Assembly (NCBI RefSeq): GCF_003334355.1
Contig: NZ_QOWP01000040.1
DNA: 30,137 nt
From: Escherichia coli
Lineage (GTDB): Bacteria > Pseudomonadota > Gammaproteobacteria > Enterobacterales > Enterobacteriaceae
Strand: one strand, 5' to 3'
This document shows, piece by piece, positions 7,959 through 21,784 of this stretch; the first letter of the stretch is position 1; every line of letters starts with the position of its first letter. A model generated the notes under the pieces. It was given only the letters and a program-made list of their open reading frames with translations. It did no database searches and was not told the DNA's origin. The translations under genes were made by a program, and so were the position numbers.

Positions 7959-8549
7959 TTATTGCTGAAAAATTATACCAATATTGCTCTCACCCGCCTC
8001 ACGCAGGTCTGCCCTAAGGCCTTTTATCAGCTCGATATCGCGTTCTTCGCACTCAGCTAAAAGTCGGAATATTTCCCACTGAATGTCCCATTCTTGCTCT
8101 ACAGCTGGGTTTTCTTTAAGCTCTTCATCGCTCATTTCGCGACCAGCCTGAGTCATTTCCAGCATCGCAACGGTCGTGATGGAGGTCTTACTCACTTCCA
8201 CCGCGTGTTCGAGCGTTTCACCACTCAAACGCGAATGGACCAGTTCACTTAACGCCACGCATGCATCGATTGCCGGATAAACGCCGTACAGATCGAAATC
8301 GTCGGCTGAAGGAATCGCTTCTTCAAATTTCTCCAGTTGGCTGTCGAAATTTACTTTTGCGTCTTTAACGGTCAGCGTTTCCCAGATGAGATCGAGAATG
8401 CGACGGTAAATTTGCCCATCACCAAAACCGGTTTGCTGGCAGAACATGGCGTAATTGGGGTACATGCGTTCGCATAAGCAAGCCATGAAAGTGACATGCT
8501 GCCAGCTTTCCAGGCGCTCCAGACGCAGATGAATTGGGTTTTGTAACAT
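7959..8549 (-). CDS. yjaG: DUF416 family protein
   Basis: 196-aa ORF MLQNPIHLRLERLESWQHVTFMACLCERMYPNYAMFCQQTGFGDG...; conserved position upstream of hupA. Confidence 0.9.
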   Translation of the reverse strand: MLQNPIHLRLERLESWQHVTFMACLCERMYPNYAMFCQQTGFGDGQIYRRILDLIWETLTVKDAKVNFDSQLEKFEEAIPSADDFDLYGVYPAIDACVALSELVHSRLSGETLEHAVEVSKTSITTVAMLEMTQAGREMSDEELKENPAVEQEWDIQWEIFRLLAECEERDIELIKGLRADLREAGESNIGIIFQQ

Positions 8550-8591
8550 GTTGAGTTCTCAAATACGGAAATTATCCGCAGTTTACCTGAA

Positions 8592-9263
8592 TTAGGGCTG
8601 ATTTGCTGTATAGCGCACGAACGCCGGACGTTCCGAGGCCACCGCGTCCGCCCAGCGCGTTGGCTCCGGCAGACGATAGCCTTTCATGCAGCGTTGTACC
8701 CACGCCAGCGCGCTGTCCACGCTGACCCGATGGCCGGTAGCGATAAACAACGGGTTACAGCGCGCTTTGCTGCGCCAGACCCAGGCCAGCTGCTCGCCTT
8801 TATCCATCAGTGGGGCCAGCGCGCCCGGTTCGCTGGAGAGCGGTTCGAATTTACCGCAGAGCCGTTTTTTCGCCACGCCAATGGTCGGCACATCCACCAA
8901 TAAGCCAAAATGGCTGGCGACGCCAAGACGGCGAGGATGCGAGATCCCATGACCATCGACAAACACTAAATCCGGCTTTTGCGACAGCATCTCCCACGCT
9001 GCCAGCAGCGCAGGATATTCGCGGAAGGAAAGAAAACCTGGAATGTAAGGCATGGTGGTGGCGATGCGGGCAACTTTATACTCGACCAGCTCAAGCGAGG
9101 GATATTTCAGCAGCACCATCGCCGCTCGCGTCACTTCTCCGCCCTGCTCAAACCCGACATCGGCTCCGGCGATCAGATCCGGTGGATCTTTATCGAGTCG
9201 ATCCTCGCGGATCACAGAAGAAGCCAGTTCGATTTGTTGAGCGCGTAATGACGCGAGATCCAT
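8592..9263 (-). CDS. nfi: Endonuclease V (deoxyinosine 3' endonuclease)
   Basis: ORF-track start MIMDLASL at 9269; the sequence I recall for Nfi begins [16 protein letters not shown] (start 9263, 223 aa). Either start is possible. Confidence 0.92.
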
Positions 9264-9272
9264 AATCACTCC

Positions 9273-10337
9273 TTAGCGGTGATATTGTTCAGACAGTCGA
9301 TGCACTGCCTCCACGAACACGCCAGCATGTTCTGGCGGCACATCCTGATGAATGCCGTGACCAAGGTTAAAGACATGACCTTCGCCGTGACCGAAACCTG
9401 CAAGTATAGTCGCTACTTCTTCTTCAATGCGGGCAGGCGGCGCGTACAGCATCGACGGATCCATATTACCCTGCAACGCGACTTTATTGCCCACACGGCG
9501 GCGCGCATCGGCGATATCCGTTGTCCAGTCGAGGCCCAACGCATCGCAACCGGTTTCTGCCATCGCTTCCAGCCACTGTCCGCCGCCTTTGGTAAACAGC
9601 GTGACCGGTACGCGGCGACCGTCGTTTTCACGCAGTAAACCATCAACAATTTTATGCATGTAATAGAGCGAGAACTGTTGATAATCGCGCCCGGTAAGCA
9701 CACCGCCCCAGGTGTCGAAAATCATCACTGCCTGAGCACCGGCTTTAATCTGCGCATTCAGATACAAAGTGACGCTTTTCGCCAGTTTATCGAGTAGAGC
9801 GTGCAGCGCCTGCGGATCGGCATACATCATTTTTTTGATCACGGTGAACGCTTTGCTGCTGCCGCCTTCCACCATGTAGGTCGCCAGCGTCCACGGGCTG
9901 CCGGAAAAACCAATCAGCGGCACTTCGCCTTTCAGTTCGCGACGAATGGTACGCACCGCGTTCATCACGTAACCCAGCTCATCTTCCGGGTCCGGAATTG
10001 GCAGTTTATCGACGTCGGCTTTGCAGGTGACTGGCGAGGTAAAACGCGGACCTTCTCCGGCTTCAAAATAGAGCCCTAACCCCATCGCGTCCGGCACGGT
10101 GAGGATATCGGAAAAGAGGATCGCCGCATCCAGCGGGTAGCGACGCAGCGGTTGCAAAGTCACTTCGCACGCCAGCTCGGCGTTTTTGCACAGCGACATA
10201 AAATCGCCCGCCTGGGCGCGCGTGGCTTTATATTCCGGTAGATAGCGACCCGCCTGGCGCATCATCCATACTGGAGTGACATCAACGGGCTGGCGCAGCA
10301 GCGCCCGCAGATAACGATCGTTTTTAAGTTCGGTCAT
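9273..10337 (-). CDS. hemE: Uroporphyrinogen decarboxylase
   Basis: 354-aa [53 protein letters not shown]..., canonical HemE N-terminus. Confidence 0.97.
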
Positions 10338-10376
10338 TTTGGCTGTTCCTTAGTGCGTCAGGCGGTCAGTGTATCA

Positions 10377-11150
10377 TCACTCATACTCTGCCCGACACAT
10401 CGCCACAGTATCTTCTATCAGACGGCGCGCTACGGTGCCGGGCGGCGGGAGTAACGGCAAATCGTCATAGCGATACCAGTTCGCCTCAAGCAATTCTTTC
10501 GGGTCGATCACGATGTCGCCGCTGTCATATTCCGCCATAAACGCGGTCATTAAAGACTGAGGAAACGGCCACGGCTGGGAAGTCACATAACGCAAGTTTT
10601 TAACTTTAATTCCGCTCTCTTCCATCACTTCCCGCGCGACCGCCTGCTCGAGGGTTTCGCCCACTTCGACGAATCCGGCAAGTACTGTATGGACACCGTT
10701 ACGATGGCGGGTATGCTGGGCGAGGAGGATCGAATCATCGCGACGGATGGCAACAATAATGCAGGGGGCGATTTGCGGGTAGTAACGCTCACGGCAATGG
10801 CTGCACAGCATCGCCCATTCGGTTTTGCTCGGATACATTTCATGCCCGCAGTAACCACAGTATTTATGCGATCGGTAAAACTCCGCCAGTTGTACGCCTC
10901 GTCCGGCCAGTTGAAACAGCCCAACATCGAGATCAATGACCTGACGTACCGACCCCATATCGTGACGCCGCTGCTGTTGTACTAACCAAACAGGTTCCCC
11001 CTGCCATTCGCCGATTTGTAGTGCGCGCTGACCCACAAGATCGAAATTTGCCGCTTCGCCATATGGCAATTCTCCCTTCGGCAACCATAATTTTTGTTCA
11101 TGGCTGACGACCCACCAGCCGTGATCTAATTTTTCAATTATACGATCCAT
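10377..11150 (-). CDS. nudC: NADH pyrophosphatase / RNA decapping Nudix hydrolase
   Basis: 257-aa ORF with zinc-ribbon cysteines (CGYCGH...CSHC) and a Nudix box ([22 protein letters not shown]). Confidence 0.96.
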
Positions 11151-11244
11151 AGCTCTTGCACTACCTTTGCATCACTGGCATGTTTAACATGGTTTTTACA
11201 TTTCTCACTGAGCAGTTTTTGAATACAAACTTGCGGAGTCAATC

Positions 11245-11721
11245 ATGCTTAACCAGCTCGATAACCTGACGGAGCGCGTCAGAGGAAGTAACAAACTGGT
11301 TGATCGCTGGCTACATGTACGTAAGCATCTGCTCGTGGCTTACTACAATCTGGTTGGCATTAAGCCTGGCAAAGAATCGTACATGAGGCTAAACGAAAAA
11401 GCCCTTGATGATTTTTGTCAGAGCCTGGTCGATTACTTGTCTGCCGGACATTTCAGTATTTATGAGCGCATTCTTCATAAGCTGGAAGGCAACGGGCAAC
11501 TCGCGCGCGCCGCGAAGATTTGGCCGCAACTCGAAGCCAATACCCAACAGATTATGGATTACTACGATTCCAGCCTGGAAACCGCCATCGATCATGATAA
11601 TTACCTTGAGTTTCAACAGGTTTTATCTGACATCGGCGAGGCGCTGGAAGCGCGCTTTGTGCTGGAAGATAAGCTGATTCTGCTGGTGCTTGACGCCGCC
11701 CGCGTCAAACATCCTGCTTGA
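11245..11721 (+). CDS. rsd: Regulator of sigma D (anti-sigma70 factor)
   Basis: 158-aa ORF MLNQLDNLTERVRGSNKLVDRWLHVRKHLLVAYYNLVGIKPGKE...; divergent from nudC. Confidence 0.95.
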   Translation: MLNQLDNLTERVRGSNKLVDRWLHVRKHLLVAYYNLVGIKPGKESYMRLNEKALDDFCQSLVDYLSAGHFSIYERILHKLEGNGQLARAAKIWPQLEANTQQIMDYYDSSLETAIDHDNYLEFQQVLSDIGEALEARFVLEDKLILLVLDAARVKHPA

Positions 11722-11769
11722 GTTCTGCGCTGTTAACGCGTAATTTACATTCAACGCCCCGTTTGTGGG

Positions 11770-11900
11770 GGCTAATTTCTTGTCGGAGTGCCTTAACTGG
11801 CTGAGACCGTTTATTCGGGATCCGCGGAACCTGATCAGGCTAATACCTGCGAAGGGAACAAGAGTTAATCTGCTATCGCATCGCCTTTGCGGCGATCGTC
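11770..11900 (+). promoter_or_regulatory. TPP (thiamine pyrophosphate) riboswitch / thi-box leader of thiC, with downstream hairpin (ATCGCC-TTTGC-GGCGAT, about 11878-11894) as candidate expression platform
   Basis: Contains conserved thi-box elements CTGAGA (11801-11806) and ACCTGATCAGGCTAATACCTGCGAAGGGAACAAG (about 11829-11862), located in the 5' UTR of thiC. Confidence 0.85.
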
Positions 11901-11951
11901 TCTTGCTTCATCCGTCGTCTGACAAGCCACGTCCTTAACTTTTTGGAATGA

Positions 11952-13849
<1,898 letters not shown>

Positions 13850-15418: not shown

Positions 15419-16189
15419 ATGTTACGTATTGCGGACAAAACGTTTGATTCACATCTGTTTACCGGCACAGGGAAATTCGCTTCTTCACAACTGATGGTGG
15501 AGGCGATCCGCGCTTCCGGCAGCCAGCTGGTGACACTGGCGATGAAACGTGTCGACTTGCGCCAGCACAACGACGCTATCCTCGAACCGCTTATCGCGGC
15601 GGGTGTGACCCTGCTGCCAAATACATCCGGGGCGAAAACAGCGGAAGAAGCCATTTTCGCCGCCCATCTGGCTCGTGAAGCGTTAGGCACAAACTGGTTA
15701 AAATTAGAGATTCACCCTGACGCCCGCTGGCTGTTGCCCGATCCCATCGAAACCCTGAAAGCCGCCGAAACGCTGGTACAACAGGGATTTGTCGTGCTGC
15801 CTTACTGCGGGGCCGATCCGGTATTGTGTAAACGTCTGGAAGAAGTCGGCTGTGCAGCGGTGATGCCGCTCGGCGCGCCGATTGGCTCGAATCAGGGACT
15901 GGAAACCCGCGCCATGCTGGAGATTATTATCCAGCAGGCCACAGTGCCGGTGGTTGTCGATGCTGGCATCGGCGTTCCCAGCCATGCCGCGCAGGCGCTG
16001 GAAATGGGGGCCGACGCGGTGTTAGTGAATACGGCGATTGCCGTCGCGGACGATCCCGTCAACATGGCGAAGGCATTTCGTCTGGCGGTAGAAGCAGGCC
16101 TACTGGCACGTCAGTCCGGACCGGGCAGCCGCAGTTATTTTGCTCATGCCACCAGCCCGCTGACCGGATTTCTGGAGGCATCGGCATGA
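15419..16189 (+). CDS. thiG: Thiazole synthase
   Basis: ATG at 15419, 1 nt after the thiS stop; product [20 protein letters not shown]..., 256 aa. The ORF-track N-terminal extension is rejected. Confidence 0.95.
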
Positions 16190-17319
16190 AAACCTTCAGC
16201 GATCGCTGGCGACAACTGGACTGGGACGACATCCGCCTGCGTATCAACGGCAAAACGGCTGCTGACGTAGAGCGGGCGCTAAATGCCTCGCAACTCACCC
16301 GCGACGACATGATGGCGCTGTTATCGCCTGCCGCCAGTGGCTATCTGGAACAACTGGCCCAACGGGCGCAGCGTCTGACCCGTCAGCGATTTGGCAACAC
16401 AGTTAGTTTCTACGTCCCGCTTTATCTTTCCAATCTTTGCGCTAACGACTGCACGTACTGTGGATTTTCCATGAGTAATCGCATCAAGCGCAAAACGCTG
16501 GATGAAGCGGATATTGCCAGGGAAAGTGCCGCTATACGGGAGATGGGCTTTGAACATCTGCTGTTAGTCACTGGTGAACATCAGGCGAAAGTGGGGATGG
16601 ATTACTTTCGTCGTCATCTCCCTGCCCTTCGTGAACAGTTCTCTTCACTACAGATGGAAGTGCAACCGCTGGCGGAGACGGAATACGCCGAGTTAAAGCA
16701 ACTTGGTCTGGATGGCGTGATGGTTTATCAGGAGACATATCACGAGGCGACTTATGCCCGCCATCATCTGAAAGGCAAAAAACAGGACTTCTTCTGGCGG
16801 CTGGAAACGCCGGATCGGCTGGGGCGTGCGGGGATTGATAAGATAGGCCTCGGCGCGCTAATTGGCCTTTCCGACAACTGGCGCGTTGACAGCTATATGG
16901 TTGCCGAACATTTGCTATGGCTGCAACAGCATTACTGGCAAAGCCGTTACTCTGTCTCCTTTCCGCGCCTGCGCCCGTGTACTGGCGGCATTGAGCCTGC
17001 GTCGATTATGGATGAACGCCAGTTAGTGCAAACCATCTGCGCCTTCCGACTGCTTGCACCGGAGATTGAACTGTCACTCTCCACGCGGGAATCACCGTGG
17101 TTTCGCGATCGCGTTATTCCGCTGGCGATCAATAACGTCAGCGCCTTCTCGAAAACGCAGCCAGGTGGCTATGCCGATAATCACCCCGAGTTGGAACAGT
17201 TCTCACCGCACGACGATCGCAGACCGGAAGCGGTTGCTGCCGCGTTAACCGCTCAGGGTTTGCAGCCGGTATGGAAAGACTGGGACAGCTATCTGGGACG
17301 CGCCTCGCAAAGACTATGA
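16186..17319 (+). CDS. thiH: 2-iminoacetate synthase (tyrosine lyase, radical SAM)
   Basis: 377-aa ORF with radical-SAM CxxxCxxC motif ([10 protein letters not shown]); start overlaps the thiG stop (ATGA). Confidence 0.96.
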
Positions 17320-17513
17320 GACGGAATGTAAGAACGTAAATTTATTCCGAGCCGCTACGGAAGATGAAAAACGCAAGGTTGTTGAAAGCGTTGTGTTTTT
17401 TTATGGTAGTGCCGTCAGCAGGAATGTTGTCCAGGGCGAAAAGCTTCTTCCTCGTTTCGCCCTGCCTTTCTTAATATTTTCCGTGAAGAATTTGCCCTCT
17501 GAATAACACCCAT

Positions 17514-17539
17514 AAAAAAACCCGCCGAAGCGGGTTTTT
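17514..17539. terminator. Bidirectional rho-independent terminator immediately 3' of rpoC (and facing thiH)
   Basis: AAAAAAACCCGCCGAAGCGGGTTTTTA: 8-bp GC-rich stem, 4-nt loop, A-run on one side and T-run on the other; 22 bp from the rpoC stop. Confidence 0.85.
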
Positions 17540-17560
17540 ACGTTATTTGCGGATTAACGA

Positions 17561-20500
17561 TTACTCGTTATCAGAACCGCCCAGACCTGCGTTCAGCAGT
17601 TCTGCCAGGCTGGCAGATGCGTCTTCTGCAGTCACCTGCGGTGCAGCCGGAGCTTCACCCGCAGCACGGCGACGCATACGATCCTGGTGGTACGCGTAAC
17701 CGGTACCGGCCGGGATCAGACGACCCACGATAACGTTCTCTTTCAGGCCGCGCAGTTCGTCGCGTTTGCCCGCAACGGCTGCTTCGGTCAGCACGCGAGT
17801 CGTCTCCTGGAACGATGCCGCGGAGATGAAGGACTCGGTTGCCAGAGACGCTTTGGTGATACCCAGCAGATCGCGGGAGTAAGTTGCACCCACTTTGCCG
17901 TTCGCTTCCAGTTCGCGGTTTGCGATCTTGACGCGAGAGTATTCAACCTGTTCGCCTTCCAGGAAGTCGGAGCTACCCGCGTTAACGATGGTAGCTTTAC
18001 GCAGCATCTGACGAACGATAACTTCGATGTGTTTATCGTTAATCTTAACGCCCTGCAGACGGTATACGTCCTGTACTTCGTTAACGATGTAACGAGTAAC
18101 AGCATGAACACCACGCAGACGCAGAATGTCGTGCGGCGCTTCCGGACCGTCGGAAATTACGTCACCACGTTCTACACGTTCACCTTCGAACACGTTGAGC
18201 TGACGCCATTTCGGAATCATCTCTTCGTACGGATCGCTACCGTCTACCGGGGTGATAACCAGACGACGTTTACCTTTGGTTTCTTTACCGAAGGAAACGA
18301 TACCGCTGATTTCAGCCAGGATTGCCGGCTCTTTCGGACGACGTGCTTCGAACAGATCCGCAACGCGCGGCAGACCACCGGTGATGTCCTTGGTACCGCC
18401 GGATTCCTGCGGAATACGCGCCAGGGTGTCACCAGAGCTGATCTGTACGCCATCTTCCAGCTGAACAATCGCTTTACCCGGCAGGAAGTACTGCGCAGGC
18501 ATATCGGTACCTGGGATCAGAACGTCGTTACCCTGAGCATCAACGATTTTCAGTGCCGGACGCAGATCTTTACCACCTGCGGTACGTTCTGCGGAATCCA
18601 GAACCACCAGCGAAGACAGACCGGTCAATTCGTCGGTCTGACGCGTAATGGTCTGGCCGTCGATCATGTCAGTAAAGCGTACAAAACCGCTTACTTCGGT
18701 GATAACCGGCATGGTGTGCGGGTCCCAGTTTGCAACGGTTTCGCCGCCAGCAACCTGTTCGCCATCGCCTTTCGCCAGTACCGCACCGTAAGGTACTTTG
18801 TAGCTTTCTTTGGTACGACCGAATTCGTCGATCAGTTTCAGTTCGGTATTACGGGAAGTGATAACCAGTTTACCGCTGGAGTTCACAACCGACTTCACGT
18901 TGCTGAGCTTGATGCTACCTTTGTTTTTCACCTGGATGCTGGATTCAGCAGCCGCACGAGATGCCGCACCACCGATGTGGAACGTACGCATGGTCAGCTG
19001 TGTACCCGGTTCACCGATGGACTGTGCCGCGATAACACCGATTGCTTCACCTTTGTTGATGATGTGGCCACGCGCCAGGTCACGACCGTAGCAGTGCGCA
19101 CATACACCAAAGTCGGTGTCACAAGATACAACAGAACGTACTTTAACCGCGTCGACAGAGTTCTCTTCCAGCAGGTCACACCACTGTTCGTGCAGCAGCG
19201 TGTTGCGCGGAACGAGGATATCAGCAGTACCCGGCTTCAGAACGTCTTCAGCAGTTACACGACCCAGTACGCGATCGCGCAGCGGCTCTTTAACGTCACC
19301 ACCCTCGATAACCGGAGTCATCATGATACCTTCATGGGTACCACAATCGTCTTCGGTAACCACCAGGTCCTGCGCCACGTCAACCAGACGACGAGTCAGG
19401 TAACCGGAGTTCGCAGTTTTCAGTGCGGTATCCGCCAGACCTTTACGAGCACCGTGGGTGGAGATGAAGTACTGGAGTACGTTCAGACCTTCACGGAAGT
19501 TCGCGGTGATTGGCGTTTCGATGATGGAGCCATCCGGCTTCGCCATCAGACCACGCATACCAGCAAGCTGACGAATCTGTGCCGCAGAACCACGCGCACC
19601 GGAGTCGGCCATCATGTAGATGCTGTTGAAGGAAACCTGCTTCTCTTCCTGACCGTCACGGTTAATAACGGTTTCAGTTTGCAGGTTATCCATCATCGCT
19701 TTGGATACACGATCGTTCGCCGCAGCCCAGATATCGATAACTTTGTTGTAGCGTTCGCCCGCAGTTACCAGACCAGACTGGAACTGCTCCTGAATTTCAG
19801 CAACTTCTGCTTCTGCCTCGGAGATGATTTCGTGTTTCTTCTCCGGGATGACCATGTCATCGATACCAACAGATGCACCAGAACGCGCTGCATAGGCGAA
19901 GCCGGTGTACATGATCTGGTCCGCAAAAATAACGGTCGGTTTCAGACCGAGAATGCGGTAGCAGGTGTTCAGCATTTTGGAGATTGCTTTTTTACCCAGC
20001 GCCTGGTTGACGATGGAGTAAGGCAGACCTTTCGGTACAATCATCCACAGAATGGCACGGCCAACAGTCGTGTCTTTCAGGCTGGTTTTCGCTACTAATT
20101 CACCGTTAGCATCTTTTTCATACTCGGTGATACGCACTTTAACGCGCGCATGCAGAGAAGCCAGACCAGAGCGATACAGACGTTCTGCTTCTTTCGGGCC
20201 AGTCAGCACCATGCCTTCGCCTTTGGCGTTAACACAGTCACGGGTCATGTAGTACAGACCCAGTACAACGTCCTGAGACGGAACGATGATTGGTTCGCCG
20301 TTCGCCGGGGACAGGATGTTGTTGGTAGACATCATCAGCGCACGCGCTTCCAGCTGGGCTTCCAGCGTCAGCGGTACGTGAACAGCCATCTGGTCACCAT
20401 CGAAGTCGGCGTTATATGCCGCACAAACCAGCGGGTGCAGCTGGATAGCTTTACCTTCGATCAGTACCGGTTCAAATGCCTGGATACCCAGACGGTGCAG

Positions 20501-21784
20501 AGTCGGTGCACGGTTCAGCAGTACCGGGTGTTCGCGGATAACTTCGTCCAGGATATCCCAAACGACAGCTTCTTCGCGCTCAACCATTTTCTTCGCAGCT
20601 TTAATGGTGGTAGCAAGACCACGCAGTTCCAGCTTGCCGTAGATGAACGGTTTGAACAGCTCCAGTGCCATTTTCTTCGGCAGACCGCACTGATGCAGAC
20701 GCAGGTATGGACCTACGGTGATTACAGAACGACCGGAGTAGTCAACACGCTTACCGAGTAGGTTCTGACGGAAACGACCCTGTTTACCTTTGATCATGTC
20801 GGCCAAAGATTTCAGAGGACGCTTGTTAGAACCGGTGATTGCACGACCGCGACGACCGTTATCCAGCAGGGCGTCAACCGCTTCCTGCAGCATACGTTTT
20901 TCGTTACGTACGATGATGTCCGGCGCAGCCAGATCCAGCAGACGTTTCAGACGGTTGTTACGGTTAATGACGCGACGATACAGATCGTTCAGGTCAGAAG
21001 TCGCGAAACGACCACCATCCAGCGGAACCAGCGGACGCAGATCTGGCGGCAGTACCGGCAGAACGGTCAGGATCATCCACTCTGGTTTGTTACCAGACTG
21101 AACGAACGCTTCCAACAGTTTGATACGCTTGGTCAGCTTTTTACGCTTGGTTTCGGAGTTGGTTTCGTTCAGCTCTTCACGCAACTGTTCGCACTCTTGC
21201 TCCAGATCCATGCTCTTCAGCAGAGCCTGGATTGCTTCCGCACCCATCTTCGCGTCGAATTCGTCACCGAACTCTTCCAGCGCGTCCAGATACTGCTCTT
21301 CAGTCAGGATCTGCTGACGTTCCAGGTTGGTCATACCGCCTTCGATAACCACATAGGATTCAAAGTACAGTACGCGTTCGATATCGCGCAGCGGCATATC
21401 GAGCAGCAGACCGATACGGGACGGCAGCGATTTCAGGAACCAGATGTGCGCAGTCGGGGAAGCCAGTTCGATGTGGCCCATACGCTCACGGCGTACTTTA
21501 GTCTGGGTCACTTCAACGCCGCACTTCTCACAGATGACGCCACGGTGTTTCAGGCGCTTGTACTTACCGCACAGGCACTCGTAATCTTTTACCGGCCCAA
21601 AGATACGGGCGCAGAAAAGGCCGTCACGTTCTGGTTTGAACGTACGGTAGTTGATGGTTTCCGGCTTTTTAACTTCACCGAAAGACCATGAACGGATCAT
21701 GTCTGGCGAAGCCAGAGCAATTTTGATCGCATCAAACTCTTCGGTTTTAGTCTGCGCTTTCAGAAACTTTAATAAATCTTTCAC
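17561..21784 (-). CDS. rpoC: DNA-directed RNA polymerase subunit beta' (GTG start)
   Basis: 1407-aa [52 protein letters not shown]...; contains NADFDGDQM catalytic motif; start codon GTG. Confidence 0.99.

Follow-up and report, generated by a model that had tools for sequence, protein, structure and literature searches.

An unoccupied, probably ancestral thiH–rpoC intergenic site in an Escherichia coli genome, and a candidate conserved small RNA at its edge

Introduction

In Escherichia coli K-12 MG1655 the gene rpoC (b3988) is followed by yjaZ (b3989), which encodes a protein of 179 amino acids, by the noncoding-RNA gene sroH (b4691), and then by thiH (b3990). Skippington and Ragan (2012; PMC3318445) reported that sroH is absent from B2+D, from ATCC 8739, and from Shigella flexneri and S. 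sonnei, which absences those authors interpreted, by parsimony, as secondary losses; and the function assigned to yjaZ under the name 'htrC' has been retracted (PMC11551758). In addition, the Term-seq survey of Adams et al. (2021; PMC7815308, supplementary file 1) lists for MG1655 an 'orphan' 3' end at position 4190584 on the minus strand (context ...CCAGGGCGAAAAGCTTCTTCCTCGTTTCGCCCTGCCTTTC), with 130,816 reads in LB at OD 0.4, 527,736 in LB at OD 2.0, and 74,886 in M63, which end is neither named nor discussed in that paper.

We here compare with those descriptions a stretch of 30,137 nucleotides from another E. coli genome (assembly GCF_003334355.1, contig NZ_QOWP01000040.1), hereafter the window. 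An initial annotation, made from the sequence alone, had noticed that thiH and rpoC are separated there by only about 240 bp and had proposed that a gene of some 180 codons, lying between them in K-12, was either deleted or never acquired.

Results

The thiH–rpoC spacer and its K-12 counterpart

The features of the locus, in window coordinates, are the following:

16186..17319, plus strand: thiH (2-iminoacetate synthase), a 377-aa ORF annotated as thiH in identical RefSeq loci
17366..17403, plus strand: terminator-like hairpin with a U7 tract, assigned to the thi operon (fold of -14.6 kcal/mol, z -3.5)
17379..17407, plus strand: predicted sigma-70-type promoter (-35 TTGTTG at 17379-17384, 17-nt spacer, -10 TATGGT at 17402-17407)
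17413..17470, plus strand: candidate two-hairpin small RNA of about 58 nt, unannotated (covariance model, covariation, Term-seq 3' end)
17475..17508, no strand: putative ancestral linker and insertion point (pairwise and multiple alignments)
17514..17539, both strands: rpoBC bidirectional rho-independent terminator (terminator scan; fold on both strands; hairpin conserved across Enterobacteriaceae)
17561..21784, minus strand: rpoC (RNA polymerase beta'), a 1407-aa ORF (RefSeq annotation, identical loci)

Between the stop codon of thiH, which gene is the last of thiCEFSGH, and that of rpoC the spacer (17320..17560) measures 241 bp, in agreement with the first estimate; and the largest ORFs touching that spacer in the ORF list of the window are of 36, 37, and 32 amino acids, so that the reported lack of any ORF of 60 amino acids or more holds. 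The two terminators recognized at the outset do both fold—the one at 17516-17539, whose hairpin is flanked by T5 on the plus strand and by T7 on the minus strand (that is, by A7/T5), and the other at about 17366-17403—but the spacer contains in addition a predicted promoter and a structured RNA. The loop and the T-tract of the upstream hairpin overlap that promoter, and a GC-rich stem followed by a T-run is found at the matching position in other genera.

In K-12 the distance from the thiH stop to the rpoC stop, taken from both the K-12 RefSeq genome and the curated MG1655 record, is 1,161 bp and not about 240 bp, and the expected gene is indeed located there in the form of yjaZ. In the pairwise alignment the identity is 100% from thiH to 17474 and once more from about 17509 into rpoC, the intervening junction consisting of 34 bp in the window (17475-17508) versus about 954 bp, with sroH and yjaZ, in K-12. 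When the short allele of E. coli W was used as a bridge, the K-12 homology reached to about 17484, which extension leaves the 24 bp at 17485-17508 without a K-12 counterpart. A residual homology of the 34-bp linker to the right end of the K-12 insert was considered and rejected, the identity of about 55% being at chance level.

A tblastn search with the K-12 YjaZ gave no match in the window, while sroH (Rfam RF00372), which scores 201 bits in the K-12 locus, was not found in the window either at the gathering threshold or at E<=1. The initial annotation, in naming a single missing gene, was accordingly right about yjaZ and incomplete in that sroH is missing too. The difference at this locus is a replacement-type indel—24 to 34 bp versus about 954 bp—that removes yjaZ and sroH, and the comparison of the whole window with MG1655 revealed no other presence or absence of a gene, as had been anticipated.

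Elsewhere in the window, the N-terminal (sensor) part of zraS together with the zraP–zraS intergenic region (5555-6013) is divergent from K-12, with about 66% DNA identity over some 400 bp and many indels; the zraS ORF is intact, the ZraS protein is 85% identical overall, and the divergent allele looks like a recombined segment. Two regulatory elements were also located:

11774-11874, plus strand: TPP riboswitch upstream of thiC (Rfam)
26143-26204, minus strand: 'P26', the rplL–rpoB intergenic attenuator region (Rfam; a K-12 Term-seq 3' end is there too)

Occurrence of the short allele in E. coli

A count over 5,426 complete E. coli genomes gave 3,741 (69%) with the K-12-type insert and at least 1,294 with the window-type junction, the exact right half of the window and W type occurring in 362. 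Some 390 other genomes without yjaZ were missed by the short junction queries—probably because the megablast word size and the low-complexity filter limit queries of that length—and were assigned by subtraction only. An evenly spaced sample of 30 records contained 10 short contiguous alleles and 20 occupied ones, and among the latter were an O157 variant, smaller by about 70 bp, and an allele with an inserted IS30. The short alleles occurred in A/B1-like (K-12-like), W, and B2 backgrounds, always with one common structure.

That the short interval might result from an engineered knockout or from an assembly artefact, in the form of a collapsed or mis-joined contig, has nothing in its favor except that the locus differs from the laboratory reference. 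Against such an origin stand the lack of any match to FRT or loxP sites (<=3 mismatches) in the whole window, the presence of the junction in those at least 1,294 independent complete genomes and of the spacer in three other species, and natural isolates of human and surface-water origin whose sequence is 100% identical to the window for 25 kb. We give this explanation practically no credence, and the opinion expressed at the outset that the locus was not engineered is thereby upheld. The frequency of the short form among the complete genomes and the published sroH polymorphism indicate that the absence of yjaZ and sroH, affecting about 31% of the complete genomes, is real, ordinary, and already known natural variation. 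Since these are accessory genes, missing from approximately one-third of E. coli, their absence from the window calls for no particular explanation, nor does it hint at engineering or misassembly.

The 4.83-Mb genome NZ_CP026085.1, labelled 'DH5alpha', contains the empty allele, which finding is unexpected for a K-12 derivative, so that this record may be mislabelled. In O157:H7 (L086 1355-1798), whose insert is smaller than that of K-12 by the amount given above, a shortened yjaZ is annotated as a 444-nt CDS for 'protein HtrC'. Strain PCP06173 (L085 9573-10724) carries an IS30 between the conserved RNA and yjaZ, and strain 200088 (NZ_CM128592.1) an IS1 within the yjaZ–sroH insert. The thiH–rpoC site is thus repeatedly struck by mobile DNA, as the IS30 and IS1 in occupied alleles attest.

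Polarity of the polymorphism

In E. albertii, E. fergusonii, and E. ruysiae the spacer is likewise of 241 bp (thiH 8001-9134 and rpoC 9376-13599 in each locus) and is 94.6–97.1% identical to that of the window, with the 24–34-bp linker included; upon addition of E. coli B2 and W, the linker-bearing spacers are 94.6–98.8% identical to the window. The outgroup species labels are the NCBI names of identical ThiH proteins considered together with the level of divergence: the thiH identity to the window is 92.7–93.6% in these outgroups, 94.8% in an E. coli B2 strain, and 100% in K-12, which values, at about 93% for the three species, place them beyond E. coli B2. Neither yjaZ nor sroH was found at the thiH–rpoC site in 80 other Enterobacteriaceae species representatives or in K. 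pneumoniae.

Judging from these alignments, the 241-bp spacer very probably constitutes the ancestral, unoccupied form of a variable Escherichia intergenic site and not the scar of a deletion. The outgroup spacers, the absence of the two genes across the wider family, and the foreign character of the insert all point to the short form as the ancestral one; and a K-12-like allele cannot have given rise to it by simple deletion, since a deletion would not recreate the 24 bp common to the outgroups. A spontaneous loss of yjaZ–sroH from a K-12-like ancestor in the lineage of this strain would nevertheless be suggested by the flanks, which match K-12 without a difference over at least 250 bp in either direction, by the 99.0–99.7% identity of the aligned blocks of the window, by the presence of the insert in most A/B1-like genomes, and by the published parsimony, which scored the sroH absences as losses (PMC3318445); indeed, K-12-identical flanks up to the very junction would suit a lineage most of whose relatives possess the insert, and in that respect count against the ancestral reading. 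Such a loss is, however, very improbable in the face of 24 to 34 junction bp that are missing from the K-12-type alleles and common to B2 and the three Escherichia species, as well as of the single structure that all the short alleles have. With respect to the two options originally proposed, never acquired is therefore the one that the 241-bp spacers with their 24 bp in three Escherichia species sustain, and a plain deletion the one that fails.

On this comparative evidence, the K-12 allele is very probably the derived state, a polarity that is the reverse of the published secondary-loss reading. As the insert shows a divergence of about 2% from one E. coli lineage to another it is old, and both alleles have probably been segregating for a long time.

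The yjaZ–sroH cassette

The K-12 insert has a GC content of 41% versus about 54% in the thiH and rpoC flanks, and some 690 bp of its length, with yjaZ and most of sroH, share 78.6% DNA identity with phage-plasmid contigs of about 88 kb. Genes of the YjaZ family are present on 559 plasmids and in no phage record, and are distributed patchily across phyla, from enterobacteria to Aeromonas and cyanobacteria. The K-12 YjaZ is a full-length member of that family (430 bits, NCBIfam NF007263), and a precomputed match to PF27200 exists as well; despite those matches, a Pfam-A profile scan of YjaZ gave none. No terminal inverted repeats, target duplication, or transposase were evident around the K-12 insert. 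An 11-nt direct repeat of 91% identity does flank that insert (L001 1076-1086 / 1986-1996), which repeat could be due to chance, about five of the kind being expected per 1.1 kb according to our own estimate. From the sequence similarities, the cassette is related to plasmid and P1-like phage-plasmid genes.

One of the phage-plasmid contigs of about 88 kb is the E. fergusonii plasmid NZ_CP099330.1, which is P1-like; its yjaZ homolog (L098 3001-3540), with 78% amino-acid identity and an sroH-like 3' flank, is a lone gene in the opposite orientation between the tail and the baseplate genes. E. coli and E. marmotae possess comparable plasmids of about 90 kb, and remoter copies of yjaZ are located on 2.4-kb cryptic plasmids.

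The events that we propose for the locus would begin with the insertion of a low-GC cassette of about 954 bp, consisting of yjaZ and the convergent sroH, at 5 to 15 bp past the 3' end of the small RNA described below; this insertion would have replaced most of the linker, giving rise to the allele of K-12 and of about 69% of E. coli. The strain of the window may have inherited the empty allele vertically, or may have regained it by homologous recombination from a donor with an empty site; in either instance it lacks YjaZ and SroH, with thiH, rpoC, and their terminators undisturbed. We infer both the direction and the mechanism of the cassette insertion, and so, too, the promoter and the 5' end of the small RNA.

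A conserved two-hairpin element downstream of thiH

The first 155 bp or so after thiH are conserved well outside Escherichia. A 35-species alignment contains an invariant core GTCAGC-loop-GCTGAC, followed by CCAGGGCGAAA-loop-TTTCGCCCTGCC with the invariant loop motif CTTCTTCCTC; hairpin 2 is formed by the stem CAGGGCGAAA/UUUCGCCCUG, which encloses the invariant C/U-rich loop CUUCUUCCUC. In the initial alignment the two-hairpin structure was 96.6% paired, versus at most 44% when slid, and exhibited 6 compensated pairs (0/500 shuffles), and RNAalifold recovered both helices independently. In a wider set, whose alignment was fitted to the covariance model, double-sided changes occurred in 12 of the 16 pairs, 95% of the cells were paired versus at most 55% when slid, and the compensated cells numbered 95 versus 28.5 +/- 6.9 in shuffles (0/500).

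The covariance model matches the window at 17413-17467 with 71.8 bits, recognizes about 60 of the 80 Enterobacteriaceae species loci at E<0.01, and matches K. pneumoniae, E. albertii, E. fergusonii, and E. ruysiae as well. The element is always on the thiH strand, 95 to 100 nt after the thiH stop, and the model found none elsewhere in about 1 Mb of sequence. Every Escherichia allele examined contains the element, with 17413-17470 being identical in E. fergusonii and E. ruysiae and having one substitution in E. albertii; and the predicted 58-nt RNA folds into both hairpins (-19.6 kcal/mol, z -2.6). The stretch between the thiH stop and the element (17320-17412 in the window) hardly changes in length, at about 94 to 100 nt, across almost all genera, including those in which its sequence is little conserved.

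No Rfam family corresponds to the element, the sub-threshold matches in the spacer (rsmX, leader peptides, STnc50, and others) resting on the rpoC terminator hairpin, and the MG1655 annotation contains no gene at this position. A small protein was considered and discarded: only Escherichia has the 36-codon ORF at 17364-17474 in intact form, and it is missing or interrupted in more than 30 other species that bear the element, so that the conservation of the latter is not protein-coding. That ORF stops exactly at the point of divergence between the alleles.

Genes downstream of the element in other genera

Downstream of the element most genera have, in the same orientation, a dCache-GGDEF diguanylate-cyclase gene (about 513 aa) and genes for the PTS proteins IIB and IIA of the cellobiose family, ahead of the convergent rpoC, as in the following examples of the dgc–PTS operon:

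L024 8451-10800: dgc–PTS operon
L093 10219-12549: dgc–PTS operon of K. pneumoniae

This operon is absent from the Escherichia loci examined. Five Escherichia species have either the 241-bp spacer or the yjaZ–sroH insert, while E. whittamii (L004 8283-14758) and Escherichia sp. MOD1-EC7003 (L005, from 8283 onward) contain a different island of about 6.5 kb, whose ORFs comprise a 211-aa protein, which gave no match in a family search, an 895-aa protein, and a permease-like and a DeoR/sugar-kinase-like product, names that are guesses from the sequence. Remnants of the dgc–PTS genes or of the E. whittamii island were looked for in the E. coli spacers and none were detected.

All the alleles part within about 5 to 17 nt of the 3' end of the small RNA, and their sequences come together again at the rpoC terminator or close to it; the cargo, according to the lineage, is nothing, yjaZ–sroH, the dgc–PTS operon, or the 6.5-kb island. 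The small RNA thus marks the fixed left edge of a site of cargo exchange, a boundary that may be due to a recombination mechanism or may just be the point at which functional constraint stops.

Transcription of the element

The predicted promoter at 17379..17407 is conserved in 62 species, with TTG at 95/61/87% and TAnnnT at 87/94/92% and a fixed 17-nt spacing of variable intervening bases; this placement of TTGTTG and TATGGT would put the start of transcription at about 17413, at the base of hairpin 1. A simple consensus promoter scan did not call that site. The orphan 3' end at 4190584 (minus) of MG1655 corresponds to position 17470 of the window, 9 nt past hairpin 2; the data are from K-12, the sequence of the RNA being identical in the window, and the read counts are of the same order as those of the SroH terminator. 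A literature search on thiH in combination with sRNA or RIL-seq returned no papers.

The principal alternative is that the hairpins belong to the thiCEFSGH mRNA, as its 3' UTR and true 3' end, or else are a functionless leader left over from a diguanylate-cyclase operon that Escherichia has lost. With that alternative agree the location of the element on the thiH strand at a constant 95 to 100 nt past the stop codon, the lack of a listed 3' end at the upstream T7 tract (the 17366..17403 hairpin) in the K-12 Term-seq data, the cyclase and PTS IIB/IIA genes downstream on the same strand in most genera, the absence of a recorded transcription start site for the element in the supplements of three datasets (PMC3415461, PMC4782308, PMC6131387), and a hairpin 2 without a canonical U-tail. 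In the opposite sense, the TTG–17 nt–TAnnnT arrangement is conserved directly upstream of the element in 62 species; the cyclase genes appear to have a proximal -10 box of their own; and the element is nearly unchanged in five Escherichia species that lack the cyclase. Moreover, the 3'-end reads were fewest in the minimal medium M63, in which derepression of the thi operon is to be expected, and most numerous in LB at OD 2.0, in which the riboswitch represses it, which distribution favors the conserved promoter against read-through from thi. On balance, we consider the 3'-UTR or leader explanation rather unlikely, without dismissing it. As to SroH, the idea that it might be a processing product of the transcript from the conserved promoter was weakened by the existence of an sroH transcription start site of its own in both E. 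coli and K. pneumoniae.

The most far-reaching reading of the element, which we hold with about as much confidence as doubt, is that the spacer encodes an unannotated sRNA of about 58 nt conserved across Enterobacteriaceae (MG1655 approximately 4190640-4190584, minus strand), with its own, possibly stationary-phase-induced promoter and an invariant, anti-Shine-Dalgarno-like C/U-rich loop, whose targets in trans might be purine-rich ribosome-binding sites or, at its origin, the adjacent dgc–PTS operon, and with a 3' end that forms the fixed left edge of a cargo-exchange hotspot. The loop CUUCUUCCUC, together with a loop GGA, is only suggestive of trans targets or of an Hfq, ProQ, or CsrA partner. 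A pairing of the anti-SD loop with the ribosome-binding site of the cyclase gene was looked for, and no convincing complement was seen.

Discussion

The gene-content difference at this locus was already known, and the conserved small RNA in the spacer is plausibly a new representative of a known kind. That K-12 would represent the derived state matters for the treatment of yjaZ or SroH as core E. coli functions; and a conserved, expressed, and covarying small RNA without a name, located in most genera beside a gene for a c-di-GMP cyclase, is a concrete candidate for wet-lab work.

Comparison with known systems

The closest comparison is with the K-12 interval itself, with which the window has in common the flanking genes, the 155 bp on the thi side, and the rpoC terminator, and from which it differs in that K-12 carries yjaZ and sroH, both being absent from the window. 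The study of Skippington and Ragan (2012; PMC3318445) deals with the same locus and the same sroH polymorphism; that study, however, scored the sRNA alone and deduced losses, whereas here the outgroup spacers and the plasmid-like nature of the cassette point to a gain within E. coli. The YjaZ family of plasmids and phage-plasmids resembles the K-12 insert in that its members travel with an sroH-like 3' flank, and differs in that on plasmids yjaZ is a lone gene among unrelated ones; the family has no representative in the window.

With the hotspots of variable cargo that adjoin tRNA or small-RNA genes, the thiH–rpoC alleles share an edge at the 3' end of a small RNA; in contrast to those hotspots, no integrase, att-like repeat, or target duplication was found at this site. 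Finally, among the orphan 3' ends of Adams et al. (2021), some of which belong to small RNAs derived from 5' UTRs, the end at 4190584 (minus) coincides with that of the present element, to which entry the analysis here adds a conserved promoter, a covarying structure, and a synteny that extends throughout the family.
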